Below are positions 23,360 to 42,783 of a DNA stretch of 64,000 nt, one piece after another. A model generated the notes under the pieces. That model saw nothing but the letters and a program-made list of their open reading frames with translations, made no database searches and had not been told where the DNA came from. The position numbers were made by a program, and so were the translations under genes. Origin of the DNA: Patescibacteria group bacterium (lineage in GTDB: Bacteria; Patescibacteriota; Minisyncoccia; UBA6257; 2-01-FULL-56-20); assembly GCA_038063755.1 (NCBI GenBank), contig JBBTUL010000006.1:26910-90909 (forward strand), in the 5' to 3' direction. How positions within the stretch are numbered: the first letter of the stretch is position 1; each line of letters opens with the position of its first letter.

Positions 23360-25135
23360 ATGAATCCAGAAACAAAGCAATGTCAGAACTGCAAAAGTTC
23401 GTTTGTTATGGAACCGGAAGATATTGCATTTTATGAGAAGATCAAAGTCCCGGCTCCAACGTTTTGCCCCGAATGTCGCATGCAACGACGTCTTATATTC
23501 CGGAATCTTCGTACATACTACCGTCGTCCCGTTGAAGGTTCAGATCAAGAAGGGTTTTCATCATTTTCTCCAGATTCTCCCTTTAAGGTTTTTGATTCAA
23601 AGTATTGGTATTCAGATAAGTGGGAAATCGACAGTGCCCGCGAATACGACTTCTCGAGGCCATTTTTTGAACAACTTAAAGAATTGATGCTAATAATGCC
23701 ATGGATTGCAAACTATAATCAGAAGTCAGTAAATAGTGAATACTGTGCTAATTCGTTTGATCTCAAGGATTGTTACTTATGTTTTAATTCTGGATATTCA
23801 GAGGAGTGCTACTACACTACAGATACTCTCCATAGTAAAAGTTGTTTTGACGCTCTTAGGGCAGAAGGATGTGAATTGTCCTATGAACTTTTTGATTGTG
23901 AGAAATGTTATAACACATTTTTCTCTTCTCATTGCAAAGAATCAAGTGATATTTGGTTTTCAAAGAATCTTATAGGATGCCATGATTGTTTTGGCTGCGT
24001 AAACTTACGACATAAATCTTATTATATTTTTAACAAACCTTATTCAAAGAAAGAATACCTTGAGAAGATTAAAGAGCTTACCACCGGATCTTTTTCTGAC
24101 TTACAAAAAGTACAAGCTCAGTTCAAAGATCATGCCTTAAATTTCCCTGTTCGTTATTATCATGGACTTCATAATAATAATGTAATAGGAGACTATGTTG
24201 ATCACTCTCAAGGTTGCCGAAAAGTTTTTTCCTGTCAGGACCTAGAATATTGTCATTATTGTCAACTTATTCTTTTTATGAAAAGTAAAGACTCCATGGA
24301 TATGTCTATTGCTGGTGGCGAGCTGTGTTACGAAGTAGAAGAGTTTGGTGGATATAACTCAAAGTTTTGCTGGTTTGGAGGAACTTCTGATTTAGGTGTT
24401 GGAGCCACAGAAATTCAATACTCGATGAATTGTTTTGATTGTTCCTCTTTATTTGGCTGCGTGGGATTGAAAAATAAAAAGCACTGCATTCTCAACAAGC
24501 AATATAGTAAGGAGGGGTATGAAGCATTAGTGCCCAAGCTTATAAAGCATATGAATGCTATGCCCTATATAGATTCTAAAGGCAGAGTTTACCAATATGG
24601 TGAGTTCTTTCCTGCTGAGTTAAGTCCTTTCGCCTATAACGAAACCCTAGCGCATGAATATCTTCCCTTAGAAAGGCAAGAATCCTTAGATGCTGGCTTT
24701 GGGTGGAAGGAACCCTCAGAGAAAAACTACAATATTACTATGCGATCAGCGGACATTCCTGATAAGATTCAAGAAGTAAGTGATACAATTTCAAAGGATA
24801 TAATAGGATGCGCTCATGAAGGGAAATGTAATCAACAGTGTAGTACCGCCTACCGTATACTTCCTCAAGAGTTAATATTCTATCGTCAAAGGAATATTCC
24901 CTTACCAAGACTTTGTCCTAATTGTCGTCATTACGAACGCCTGAAACAACGTAATCCGGTAAAGTTTTATTCACGAGAATGTCAGTGTAAAGGATCGGAA
25001 GTAGGAAAATATGTAAATGTCGCAAAGCATTTTCACAATACTGAAAAGTGTCCGAATACTTTCCTCACAACATACTCTCCTGAAAAGCCCGATTTTATTT
25101 ATTGCGAACAGTGCTATCAAGCCGAGTCGGCTTAA
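23360..25135 (+). CDS. cysteine-rich paralog 1 (591 aa; N- and C-terminal zinc-ribbon-like motifs; function unknown)
   Basis: N-terminus CQNCKSSFVMEPEDIAFYEKIKVPAPTFCPECRMQRR. Internal CHDCFGCVNLRHK...YIFNKPYSKKEY and CFDCSSLFGCVGLKNKKHCILNKQYSKEGY. C-terminus YRILPQELIFYRQRNIPLPRLCPNCRHYERLK. Clearly paralogous to 35716-37449 and 40960-42783. Confidence 0.7.
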   Translation: MNPETKQCQNCKSSFVMEPEDIAFYEKIKVPAPTFCPECRMQRRLIFRNLRTYYRRPVEGSDQEGFSSFSPDSPFKVFDSKYWYSDKWEIDSAREYDFSRPFFEQLKELMLIMPWIANYNQKSVNSEYCANSFDLKDCYLCFNSGYSEECYYTTDTLHSKSCFDALRAEGCELSYELFDCEKCYNTFFSSHCKESSDIWFSKNLIGCHDCFGCVNLRHKSYYIFNKPYSKKEYLEKIKELTTGSFSDLQKVQAQFKDHALNFPVRYYHGLHNNNVIGDYVDHSQGCRKVFSCQDLEYCHYCQLILFMKSKDSMDMSIAGGELCYEVEEFGGYNSKFCWFGGTSDLGVGATEIQYSMNCFDCSSLFGCVGLKNKKHCILNKQYSKEGYEALVPKLIKHMNAMPYIDSKGRVYQYGEFFPAELSPFAYNETLAHEYLPLERQESLDAGFGWKEPSEKNYNITMRSADIPDKIQEVSDTISKDIIGCAHEGKCNQQCSTAYRILPQELIFYRQRNIPLPRLCPNCRHYERLKQRNPVKFYSRECQCKGSEVGKYVNVAKHFHNTEKCPNTFLTTYSPEKPDFIYCEQCYQAESA

Positions 25136-25279
25136 AAGCTTCGCCATTCATCAAAGGCTTCAAGAATCTTCTTCCGTTGCTCGTTACTATCAAACACGGC
25201 ACGTGTCCCAGGAAAAAGTAGGTTATCCCGCTCGATTTGCGCGGTTTCTTTTGGGTAAGTTCTGCGACATAATTATTCT

Positions 25280-25783
25280 ATGGAAGAAAAAATAATAAGT
25301 GCGCTTCGTTGGATTGTAGGAGTGCTTACCAAGCACCAAATCCCATACAGGATTGGTGGTGGATTTGCAGCCCACATCTATGGCTCAAACCGGCCGATCA
25401 ATGATATTGATATTTCTCTTCCCGGGAAATATTTCTCAATTATCGTCCCGGAAGTTTCTGGGTATATAACCGAAGGGCCGAAACATTACTCAAATGAAAA
25501 ATGGATCTGCGACACTCTTTCGCTTAATTACCACGGACAAGAAATAGATATGACCGACATTGATACGTTGCGGATGAGTAACAAAGAAAAAACCGAATGG
25601 TTTCGAACTAAAGATAGATACCGAAAATTCCCCAATCTGGTTTTGGATGTAAACGGCATTGATGTTTCTCTCATCGACCCCCGAGACTTAGCTGCGTATA
25701 AAAAAGAGTTGGACGGAGACCATCAGCTAGTTGATGTCGAGGCGGTTGAGAAGTATGTAGCCGAGAAAGAAGCCCGGGGGTAG
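25280..25783 (+). CDS. small nucleotidyltransferase (ANT/Lnu-like, Pol-beta superfamily)
   Basis: IPYRIGGGFAAHIYGSNRPINDIDISL matches the GG-x9-13-D-x-D minimal NTase motif; 167 aa. Confidence 0.5.
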   Translation: MEEKIISALRWIVGVLTKHQIPYRIGGGFAAHIYGSNRPINDIDISLPGKYFSIIVPEVSGYITEGPKHYSNEKWICDTLSLNYHGQEIDMTDIDTLRMSNKEKTEWFRTKDRYRKFPNLVLDVNGIDVSLIDPRDLAAYKKELDGDHQLVDVEAVEKYVAEKEARG

Positions 25784-40915: not shown

Positions 40916-40959
40916 CTTGGTCGCTTGCACCGAGAAGCATTGAGTATAAAATTAGTCCC

Positions 40960-42783
40960 GTGAACCAAGAGGCACGAAATCCTTCGTCAGGCTCCCCTCA
41001 ATCATCTTCGGGACAAGCAGGGCAAGTCTGTCAGAACTGCCATGAAAAGTTCGTCATTGAACCAGCGGATTTTGCGTTCTATGAGCGTATAAAAACTCCA
41101 CCGCCGACCTGGTGTCCGGACTGTCGCCTTATTCGCCGCTATGCCTGGCGCAATGAACGGGCGCTTTACAAAGCCCTTTGCGGCAATTGCGGTAAAGACA
41201 TCTTTTCTGCGTATCCAGCAAGCAGTTTTTTTCCGGTATACTGCCGAGACTGCTGGCTCTCCGATGCATGGGATCCACTCGCATACGGACAAGATTACGA
41301 TTTTTCCAAGTCATTTTTTGAGCAATTTGAAAAGCTTTTAGCGAAAGTACCGCGCCTTCATCTCTTTCAGATCAACGCCGTCAACTCTCCGTATTCGAAT
41401 ATCATTCGCGACGTAAAGAATGTTTACCTTTCTTACTCGATTGTAGTGGGAGAAGAAATATTCTACTCAAAAAACGTCGATCAGTCGCGCGAAATGTTCG
41501 ACTGCCTTTCGATGGAGTCCTCCGAGAGATGTCTCGGGTCGATGTATGGAGAGAAAAATCATAACGTCGCCTACTCGATCCTCACCGGGTCATCATTTGA
41601 CTCCATGTTTCTTTTCGACTCTCAAAACGTAAGCAACTGTTTCCTTTCGACAAATCTTCGAAACAAAAAGTACGTCCTGCGAAACAAGCAGTACACGAAA
41701 GAAGAATACGAAAGCGAACGGAGAAAAATTGACACCGGAAGCTACGCTGTATTTTCCCGTCTCTCTGAAGAATTCGAGTCTTTCAGGCTTCAATATCCGA
41801 GAAAATACGCCGACATTTTAAAGTCGGTAAATTCGACCGGCAATATTCTTTCAAACATGAAGGATGCTCGTCGCACATTCGAGTCGTATGATTCGGAAAA
41901 TATTGCATACTGTGGACGGACGATTTCTCTTAAAGATTCTTTTGACGTAAACAACACCGGCCTCGGCTCAGAACTCATTTACGAATACACAAGCGGCGGG
42001 AAGATGGACCGCGAACTCAAATTCTGTATGGCTGGTTTTGGGAATTGCCGGAATCTGGAGTATTGCGGCTGGTGCGGAAGTTCTTCTGATTTGTTCGGCT
42101 GCTTCGGAGTCCGTAATAAAAAGTTCTGTATTTTAAACAAGGAATACTCCGAGGAAGAATATCGCGACCTACGCGAAAAAATCGTAAGGCACATGAGCGA
42201 ACTTCCACACGAAGGAAGGAATGGAAGAGTGTATCGTTACGGAGAATTTTTCCCGATAGAGATGAGTCCGTTCGCTTATAACGAAAGCACGTCTCAAGAG
42301 CACGATTCCCTCACAAAGTCGGAGGCGCTTGCTCTTGGCTATCGATGGAAAGACTCCGAAGAGAAAGCCGCTCGCATCGACATTCGAGCAGACAACTTGC
42401 CGGATCATATAAAAGACACGAACGAAGACATCCTCTCGAAAACAATCGGATGTATGCACAATGGCGAATGCCCGCACCTTTGCACCGAAGGATTCCGGGT
42501 GATTAAGCAGGAACTTGATTTATACAGAAGAATAAATGTTCCTTTGCCGCGGCTTTGCCCAAATTGCCGCCACTACGAACGTCTAAAACTAAAAAACCCG
42601 TGGAAGCTCTGGTCACGCGCCTGCCAGTGCGCGGGAAACACATCGAAAAATAAGGTATACAATAATTCCACGTCACATCCGCACGGATCCGATCCTTGTC
42701 CTAATACCTTTGAGACATCCTACGCTCCAGAAAGACCTGAAATTGTGTACTGTGAGGGGTGTTACCAGCAAGAAATAGCATGA
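40960..42783 (+). CDS. cysteine-rich paralog 3 (607 aa)
   Basis: N-terminus CQNCHEKFVIEPADFAFYERIKTPPPTWCPDCRLIRR. Internal LRNKKYVLRNKQYTKEEY and CFGVRNKKFCILNKEYSEEEY. C-terminus FRVIKQELDLYRRINVPLPRLCPNCRHYERLK. It probably starts at a GTG. Confidence 0.7.
   Translation: MNQEARNPSSGSPQSSSGQAGQVCQNCHEKFVIEPADFAFYERIKTPPPTWCPDCRLIRRYAWRNERALYKALCGNCGKDIFSAYPASSFFPVYCRDCWLSDAWDPLAYGQDYDFSKSFFEQFEKLLAKVPRLHLFQINAVNSPYSNIIRDVKNVYLSYSIVVGEEIFYSKNVDQSREMFDCLSMESSERCLGSMYGEKNHNVAYSILTGSSFDSMFLFDSQNVSNCFLSTNLRNKKYVLRNKQYTKEEYESERRKIDTGSYAVFSRLSEEFESFRLQYPRKYADILKSVNSTGNILSNMKDARRTFESYDSENIAYCGRTISLKDSFDVNNTGLGSELIYEYTSGGKMDRELKFCMAGFGNCRNLEYCGWCGSSSDLFGCFGVRNKKFCILNKEYSEEEYRDLREKIVRHMSELPHEGRNGRVYRYGEFFPIEMSPFAYNESTSQEHDSLTKSEALALGYRWKDSEEKAARIDIRADNLPDHIKDTNEDILSKTIGCMHNGECPHLCTEGFRVIKQELDLYRRINVPLPRLCPNCRHYERLKLKNPWKLWSRACQCAGNTSKNKVYNNSTSHPHGSDPCPNTFETSYAPERPEIVYCEGCYQQEIA

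Follow-up and report, generated by a model that had tools for sequence, protein, structure and literature searches.

The window analysed here is a 64,000-nucleotide stretch of a Patescibacteria group bacterium genome (contig JBBTUL010000006.1, positions 26,910 to 90,909). It encodes three cysteine-rich proteins, designated copies 1 to 3 (Table 1), that belong to a single protein family. As the original prediction, made from the letters of the sequence, had proposed, the three open reading frames (ORFs) align along their whole length; full-length alignment showed 34% identity between copies 1 and 2 and 40% between copies 1 and 3. A six-frame scan of the window with a family profile hidden Markov model (HMM), built from 40 members, returned exactly three matches, copies 1 to 3 (E 1e-183 to 1e-281), and no fourth copy. 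The proteins contain 36, 30 and 28 cysteines respectively, where about 30 had been predicted for each. The median cysteine content of the family was 5.8% compared to 0.63% for adjoining genes across a set of 87 loci, which comprised 80 loci kept from the at least 577 matches found in a scan of GTDB species representatives, six others and the window itself. No transmembrane segment or signal-like N-terminus was present in copies 1 to 3 when hydrophobic segments were looked for in their sequences, which agreed with the predicted lack of a signal peptide, and their isoelectric points (pI) lay between 5.6 and 6.5. The family proteins are predicted to be soluble and cytoplasmic.

The base composition of copy 1 (GC 0.374; GC at third codon positions, GC3, 0.318) was atypical when set against the window (0.479 and 0.485 respectively), copy 2 (GC 0.487, GC3 0.595) and copy 3 (GC 0.464, GC3 0.505); lateral transfer of this gene from a relative of lower GC is possible. 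A dip in GC content at 22–26 kb of the window coincides with the copy 1 region.

Domain anatomy and cysteine sites

Structure prediction, which had been proposed as a check for one paralog, gave confident AlphaFold2 (AF2) models of copy 1 (predicted local distance difference test score, pLDDT, 83.4; predicted template modelling score, pTM, 0.83) and copy 3 (pLDDT 85.7, pTM 0.85) with family alignments as input. The two models had the same layout. In the N-terminal part a finger and a basic helix are followed by a second small finger, solenoid A and a two-helix linker; the modelled C-terminal part consists of solenoid B, a long helix, a mixed region and a pair of fingers. The mixed region is conserved and contains the motif YGEFFP.ELSPF.YNE. 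Strands of the modelled solenoids recur at a 6-residue spacing, equal to 12-residue coils, and the core is predicted to consist of two homologous narrow beta-solenoids with interior ladders of cysteine and serine. The homology of solenoids A and B was seen by hhalign (99.9% probability, E=8.9e-34). The element CFGC..LRNKK..ILNKQY..EEY, which the original prediction had counted as two or three internal repeats, forms the last coil and exit of each solenoid; the repeats are real and there are two per protein, not three.

Each end of the protein is a tandem treble-clef zinc-finger module made up of zf_Tbcl and CxxC-x17-CxxC types. The N-terminal motif of the original prediction corresponded to a CxxC...CPxCR finger. 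Its match to Pfam zf_Tbcl (PF13451) fell below the gathering threshold of 24 bits: copy 1 scored 18.3 bits (E=0.0022) and copy 3 15.4 bits, and copy 2 had no match. The same model matched 10 of the 40 members at E<=0.01 (best 3.5e-6), and one precomputed match is on record (P0046). For the second finger type, PF23477 zf_Tbcl_2/TIGR04272, copy 3 scored 13.7 bits, below the curated cut-offs of 27 and 36 bits respectively, and two of the 40 members matched at E<=0.01. The N- and C-terminal modules were found to be homologous (hhalign 98.9% probability, E=1.8e-17), so that the predicted echo of the N-terminal motif at the C-terminus stood, except in copy 2, in which the CPNCR cysteines have been lost. 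The basic helix after the zinc knuckle reads CPECRxxRRxxFRNxRxLYKRK, the C-terminal module has a pI of 8.8 and the NLRNKK motifs are basic.

The presence or absence of each cysteine and the pairwise phi correlation were computed across 193 full-length members, using copy 1 numbering. Four cysteine quartets (sites 1 to 4, Table 1) were kept or lost as units. The weaker correlation of C58 with the rest of site 2 arose because C58 is often retained after the other three have been lost. The solenoid cysteines were only weakly correlated (phi <=0.35), and Ser, Leu, Val or Ala takes the place of one at a time; in this they behave as interior ladder residues and unlike obligate metal ligands. The family is thus predicted from its cysteine patterns to carry two to four structural Zn(Cys)4 sites. 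Binding of zinc by CxxC-x17-CxxC domains has been found experimentally for small proteins of Methanosarcina mazei (PMC12704099).

The sites are distributed differently among the three copies. In copy 1 the C-terminal equivalent of the CxxC-x17-CxxC finger has a long insert. Copy 2 keeps site 1 and a canonical site-4 CxxC-x17-CxxC (C547/C550/C568/C571) and lacks site 3, its CPNCR being replaced by LLSPHER, a state common to 120 orthologues. In copy 3 the N-terminal CxxC-x17-CxxC lies at residues 67–99 and several solenoid-A cysteines are replaced. This anatomy predicts three zinc ions per molecule of copy 1, two for copy 2 and four for copy 3. The copy 2 orthogroup additionally has a private N-terminal extension (KTPxFD..IL) and a CxxCxxCxxC that closes both solenoids, conserved at 78–99% per position.

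Table 1. Coordinates of the family genes, their predicted parts and selected neighbouring ORFs in the window, with the cysteine sites in copy 1 residue numbering
Feature	Position	Strand	Details
Copy 1	23360..25135	+	591 aa; NCBI locus AAB495_01435; predicted Zn sites 1, 3 and 4 intact, site 2 degenerate
Copy 1 N-terminal treble-clef finger, then basic helix	23372..23491	+	residues 5-44; C8, C11, C36, C39; Pfam zf_Tbcl E=0.0022
Copy 1 predicted solenoid A	23693..24079	+	residues 112-240; ends CHDCFGCVNLRHK...YSKKEY
Copy 1 predicted solenoid B	24146..24559	+	residues 263-400; homologous to solenoid A; ends LFGCVGLKNKKHCILNKQYSKEGY
Copy 1 C-terminal double-finger module	24794..25132	+	residues 479-591; predicted Zn sites 3 and 4; homologous to N-module (hhalign), Cys co-loss
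Copy 2	35716..37449	+	577 aa; AAB495_01505; separate conserved orthogroup
Copy 3	40960..42783	+	607 aa; 4/4 Cys4 sites intact
Small finger protein	40457..40915	+	RG-rich N-terminus, CxxC-x17-CxxC (zf_Tbcl_2) finger, Lys-rich tail; ends 44 nt upstream of copy 3
ORF	25280-25783		167 aa; GG...DIDI motif, seen by eye
Site 1	C8/C11/C36/C39		96-97% conserved
Site 2	C58/C61/C79/C82		exact CxxC-x17-CxxC, in ~45%; phi 0.98-0.99 among C61/C79/C82, 0.56-0.58 to C58
Site 3	C484/C494/C519/C522		~90% conserved; phi 0.92-0.94 among C494/C519/C522; C484 near-invariant
Site 4	C541/C564/C582/C585		~100% conserved

Family distribution and paralog age

When 1.84 billion cluster representatives (50% identity) were searched exhaustively with the HMM, 5,289 clusters matched at E<=1e-3 and 2,253 at E<=1e-30; among the 150 matches listed from this search, most were full-length proteins of 550–600 aa. 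In a word-indexed search 7,987 of the 8,000 candidates scored reached E<=1e-3; the search was thus saturated and its total is a lower bound. Every named source in that search was Patescibacteria and every product name was 'hypothetical protein'. The 80 GTDB loci came from Nomura-, Staskawicz-, Giovannoni-, Lipton-, Jorgensen- and Sungiibacteria together with generic Patescibacteria metagenome-assembled genomes. The sole source outside Patescibacteria was a 2.2-kb contig binned as 'uncultured Gammaproteobacteria' (L059, CAYZAZ010000094.1), which is likely to be mis-binned because all the other named sources are Patescibacteria. The sources are mostly Paceibacteria/Parcubacteria, and the family is a very large, core-genome and uncharacterised one.

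The original prediction had not recognised a named family, and this was confirmed: profile scans of Pfam (2025 copy), NCBIfam and PADLOC gave no whole-protein match for copies 1 to 3, the only matches being those of the fingers below threshold, and NCBIfam gave no match at all for these copies. PDB sequences searched with a profile yielded nothing above chance (best E=2), tblastn of phage and plasmid collections with copy 1 found no relative, and literature searches found no description of the family. Its building blocks, treble-clef fingers and a narrow beta-solenoid, are known; neither the whole family nor its architecture is covered by a Pfam or NCBIfam model or has a counterpart among PDB sequences or structures or in the literature searched.

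Two or more members were present within approximately 20 kb in 51 of the 87 loci, with up to seven in a row and nearly always on one strand. For 149 of 154 co-located members, the closer relative was a protein from a different species and not any co-located paralog, and the median best identity was 0.58 between loci and 0.45 within a locus. Average-linkage clustering of the array members gave a continuum, and a small set of clean orthogroups in fixed order was not obtained. Despite this continuum, the copy-2 type stands apart as its own orthogroup of 120 clusters. The three copies in the window are accordingly old, separately maintained paralogs, dispersed here rather than in tandem, and not recent duplications, because members are closer to the proteins of other species and copy 2 has an orthogroup of its own.

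Genes beside the family and in the window

Clustering of the 1,307 genes of the loci showed that recurrent neighbours were mostly housekeeping genes (MreB, DnaJ, CysS, SecDF, L21, PGK, a sigma-70-region-4/HARE-HTH protein, CutA1 and a GalT/HIT-like gene). The most frequent co-occurring cluster, and the sole recurrent non-housekeeping neighbour, was a TraG/VirD4-like ATPase matching TrwB_AAD_bind, DUF87, T4SS-DNA_transf and TraG-D_C. This cluster comprised 38 genes, found in 28 of the 87 loci and separated from the family by a median of 364 bp; 36 of them shared the strand of the family and 22 directly adjoined a member. The ATPases occur in a short form of ~490 aa, in a long form of 620–830 aa with a CxxC-x17-CxxC at approximately residue 456, and in a version with a DUF8128 protein, which is either fused to the ATPase (790–930 aa) or the product of a separate gene immediately upstream. 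The short and the finger-bearing long ATPases, which make up most of the 38, had no transmembrane segment and for this reason are not canonical membrane coupling proteins; some DUF8128-fused ATPases have a hydrophobic N-terminal stretch. A short (~490 aa) and a long, zinc-finger-containing (~700 aa) ATPase often bracket or interleave the array, as in L001, L005 (between 1374 and 2834 and between 14605 and 16776), L012, L022, L028, L051, L052 and L070.

A published census counted 5,713 VirD4-like homologues in 2,918 Patescibacteria genomes, approximately two per genome, of which 148 were near virB4; exaptation of these homologues was not ruled out by its authors (PMC12102498). The ATPases represent 3.5% of the non-family genes of the loci (38/1,095), which we estimate to be a roughly ten-fold enrichment relative to ~2 per genome. 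The ATPases paired around the arrays may be the 'orphan' coupling-protein homologues of that census. As a separate observation, a CutA1 (divalent-ion tolerance) gene lay directly after family or ATPase genes in seven loci (L009, L028, L040, L063, L072 and others) at a median gap of 38 bp.

In the window itself, two NUDIX genes, GIY-YIG, CYTH, DinB_2, DUF1059 and a zf_Tbcl_2 (TIGR04272) protein were confirmed by Pfam, largely as the original prediction had listed them; DUF202 was a weak match. The ANT/Lnu-like nucleotidyltransferase (NTase) predicted in the 167-aa ORF downstream of copy 1 could not be confirmed, as no match was found in Pfam, NCBIfam or PDB sequences. The GG...DIDI motif seen in it is typical of minimal nucleotidyltransferases, and the ORF may encode an NTase fold that is divergent or new. 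The GIY-YIG gene ends 12 nt before copy 2. The finger protein upstream of copy 3 matched PF23477 (E=2.9e-16) and TIGR04272 (E=1.4e-16; 59 bits, which passes the cut-off). Its ORF was listed as 40283-40915 with a TTG start, and the sequence makes Met59 (nucleotide 40457) the likely start. The finger type of this protein is common to the family and to the ATPases beside arrays elsewhere, and it is a possible candidate partner of the family.

Relatives of these neighbours were then sought among the 86 loci other than the window. NUDIX relatives were present in 2–3 loci, GIY-YIG in two and a DEAD-box helicase in two, and relatives of CYTH, NTase, DinB, DUF1059, DUF202, RpiB and DJ-1 were present in none. 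The conserved association with NUDIX, NTase or CYTH genes that had been proposed as a check was thus not found in other genomes, an outcome that the original prediction had named as refuting it. Copies 1 to 3 had no match in PADLOC-DB 2.0 at E<=1e-3, and the two NUDIX proteins weakly matched the PADLOC candidate model PDC-S07. The neighbours are incidental, because NUDIX, GIY-YIG, CYTH, NTase and DinB relatives are near-absent from the other loci, and the region is not a defence locus.

Genes elsewhere in the window (TopA, RelA/SpoT, a PilC-like gene, PPDK and a Mur ligase) are those of an ordinary chromosome. Three ORFs without a Pfam or NCBIfam match (142, 393 and 138 aa) lie in 27010-28658 and 43911-44327; the C-terminal part of the 393-aa product is hydrophobic. 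On the minus strand between 33179 and 35422, divergent from the GIY-YIG and copy 2 pair, is the gene for a 747-aa NlpC/P60 protein, which starts with a hydrophobic leader and is probably a secreted cell-wall hydrolase.

Proposed function and comparison with known systems

We tentatively favour, at somewhat less than even odds, a role for the family as zinc-stabilised cytoplasmic adaptors or scaffolds that in many lineages act with soluble TraG/VirD4-like ATPases. The rigid double-solenoid core flanked by zinc-finger modules would form the scaffold; its basic finger modules would make the contact with nucleic acid or a partner protein, with specificity coming from the diversified, paralog-specific surfaces of the solenoids. 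In many genomes the proteins would work with soluble TraG/VirD4-like ATPases of the FtsK-HerA superfamily, some of which have the same finger. This retains the multi-zinc-finger, scaffold-like part of the original prediction, which had proposed zinc-binding sensors or scaffolds of an undescribed system, and discards the link to nucleotide enzymes.

Several observations weigh against this proposal. Shuffling within loci gives an expectation of 15.8 +/- 2.7 adjacencies between ATPase and family genes compared to the 22 observed, which is a modest excess. In the reverse direction, 80 metagenome loci were anchored on the long ATPase, and the family was present in 11 of them; of the 19 ATPase-anchored loci of at least 15 kb, it was present in six. 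A search of the 64-kb window found no TraG-like ATPase, and the co-occurrence may in part be synteny inherited among related genomes. The whole protein is also slightly acidic, with no established nucleic-acid-binding domain detected. Because the reverse test was weaker than the forward one, the ATPase is described here as a recurrent neighbour in a subset of loci and not as a partner. Among the same 19 loci, the family was present in six of the seven with two ATPases and in none of the 12 with one. A bolder extension, in which the family, the paired soluble ATPases (one with a finger) and the DUF8128 protein constitute an unrecognised cytoplasmic machine specific to Paceibacteria, is doubtful. 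If it were true, the machine might handle DNA or RNA or deliver clients, the ancient paralogs would be interchangeable specificity subunits and the 'orphan' coupling-protein homologues of Patescibacteria would be explained by exaptation into it.

Other explanations share parts of this evidence. Binding of RNA or single-stranded DNA independently of any ATPase, as a chaperone or regulator, would be in keeping with the basic helix after each zinc knuckle, the pI of the C-terminal module, the basic NLRNKK motifs and the position of copy 3 immediately downstream of the gene for a protein that is rich in RG and Lys and has this type of finger; the overall pI of ~6 and the failure to detect a recognised nucleic-acid-binding domain make this rather unlikely. 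Somewhat less likely still is a structural or cytoskeletal role, in which the solenoids would form homo- or heteropolymers by end-to-end stacking, as bactofilins or curli subunits do, with finger modules as joints. Such polymers would explain the many conserved paralogs and their frequent position beside the mreB-mreC-mreD-PBP2 cluster, but the pTM of 0.83–0.85 indicates a compact monomer with solenoid ends capped by helices and finger modules, no bactofilin Pfam match was found and inherited synteny may account for the MreB linkage. An anaerobic life, generally ascribed to the hosts, would suit redox or Fe-S proteins in which the CxxCxxC(xxC) closing each solenoid binds [4Fe-4S] or a similar cluster, acting as electron carriers or redox sensors. 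C204/C207/C210/C213 and their solenoid-B equivalent are indeed conserved (up to 96% in the family and 92–99% in the copy-2 orthogroup). These cysteines are, however, not lost as a set but exchanged one by one for Leu, Ser or Val, copy 3 keeps only one of them in solenoid A, and the cysteine ladder of the closest structural analogue is structural; no ferredoxin or Fe-S Pfam match was found for copies 1 to 3 or across the 40 members. We consider this explanation improbable.

Equally improbable is a role as secreted substrates or effectors, which VirD4-like coupling proteins would recruit for export into host cells through a patescibacterial type IV secretion system (T4SS); the arrays would then be an effector repertoire. 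Rigid, tightly zinc-folded proteins are poor T4SS cargo. The family does adjoin TraG/VirD4-like ATPases in 28 of the 87 loci and lacks a signal peptide, as is typical of T4SS substrates, and the patescibacterial T4SS appears specialised for a role other than conjugation (PMC12102498). Against this, the short and the finger-bearing long ATPases have no N-terminal transmembrane anchor of the kind found in true coupling proteins, few coupling-protein homologues (148 of 5,713) are near virB4 (PMC12102498), and the precomputed Pfam annotation, in those loci for which it was read, showed no VirB, relaxase or other T4SS genes. The uniform architecture and ancient conserved orthogroups are also unlike fast-evolving effectors, and the C-terminus has no positively charged tail. 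The original prediction had compared the mixture of genes around the three copies to a nucleotide-based conflict or defence locus, in which the paralogs would be sensors or scaffolds for NUDIX, NTase, GIY-YIG and CYTH enzymes. Although the named domains are present in the window, with a GIY-YIG gene close to copy 2 and a NUDIX pair weakly resembling PDC-S07, each neighbour recurs in only 0–3 of the 86 other loci, the family has no PADLOC match and no relative of copy 1 was found in the phage or plasmid collections. The arrays lie in conserved housekeeping synteny and their paralogs are ancient and stably kept, unlike variable defence islands, and this explanation is very improbable indeed.

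Much of bacterial diversity belongs to Patescibacteria, whose lineage-specific genes are for the most part without an assigned function. With thousands of clusters, several ancient copies per genome and approximately 6% cysteine, the family is among the larger blocks of such genes, and it merits proper definition because no whole-protein model, solved structure or paper was found for it. The partial link to the ATPases provides a lead on the approximately two coupling-protein homologues per Patescibacteria genome that lie outside T4SS loci. Additionally, a false lead has been removed, as the region is not a nucleotide-signalling defence island.

Among known proteins, the terminal modules of the family share the cysteine spacing of zf_Tbcl (PF13451), in which two CxxC pairs form one Cys4 site, and the exact CxxC-x17-CxxC of zf_Tbcl_2/TIGR04272 is found in the copy 3 N-terminus, the copy 2 C-terminus and C58/C61/C79/C82 of the family. 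These finger types are otherwise known mostly from small proteins with a single domain or from enzyme tails, whereas the family has two tandem finger pairs around a core of ~400 residues covered by no model, and most of its members score below the Pfam gathering thresholds. The core is likened to the Tenebrio molitor antifreeze protein (TmAFP, PDB 1ezg), which also has 12-residue coils with an interior cysteine ladder. There is no sequence relationship to TmAFP, the spruce budworm antifreeze protein (1m8n), the ryegrass ice recrystallisation inhibition protein (3ult) or curli CsgA (8c50), to which the family is <=13% identical. In contrast to TmAFP the family has no TCT repeat or ice-binding face and no secretion signal, and the fold is analogous with no membership implied; disulfides are unlikely because the protein is cytoplasmic. 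A Foldseek structure search returned nothing significant. The hexapeptide left-handed beta-helix acyltransferases and gamma-carbonic anhydrases differ in coil length and gave weak structural scores, and no bactofilin or hexapeptide (Hexapep) Pfam match was found at E<=1 for copies 1 to 3 or at E<=0.01 for the 40 members. The remaining comparison is with the VirD4/TraG/TrwB coupling proteins, as ATPases of the same superfamily are often encoded beside the family arrays; in contrast to the coupling proteins, the short and the finger-bearing long ATPases found there are soluble.

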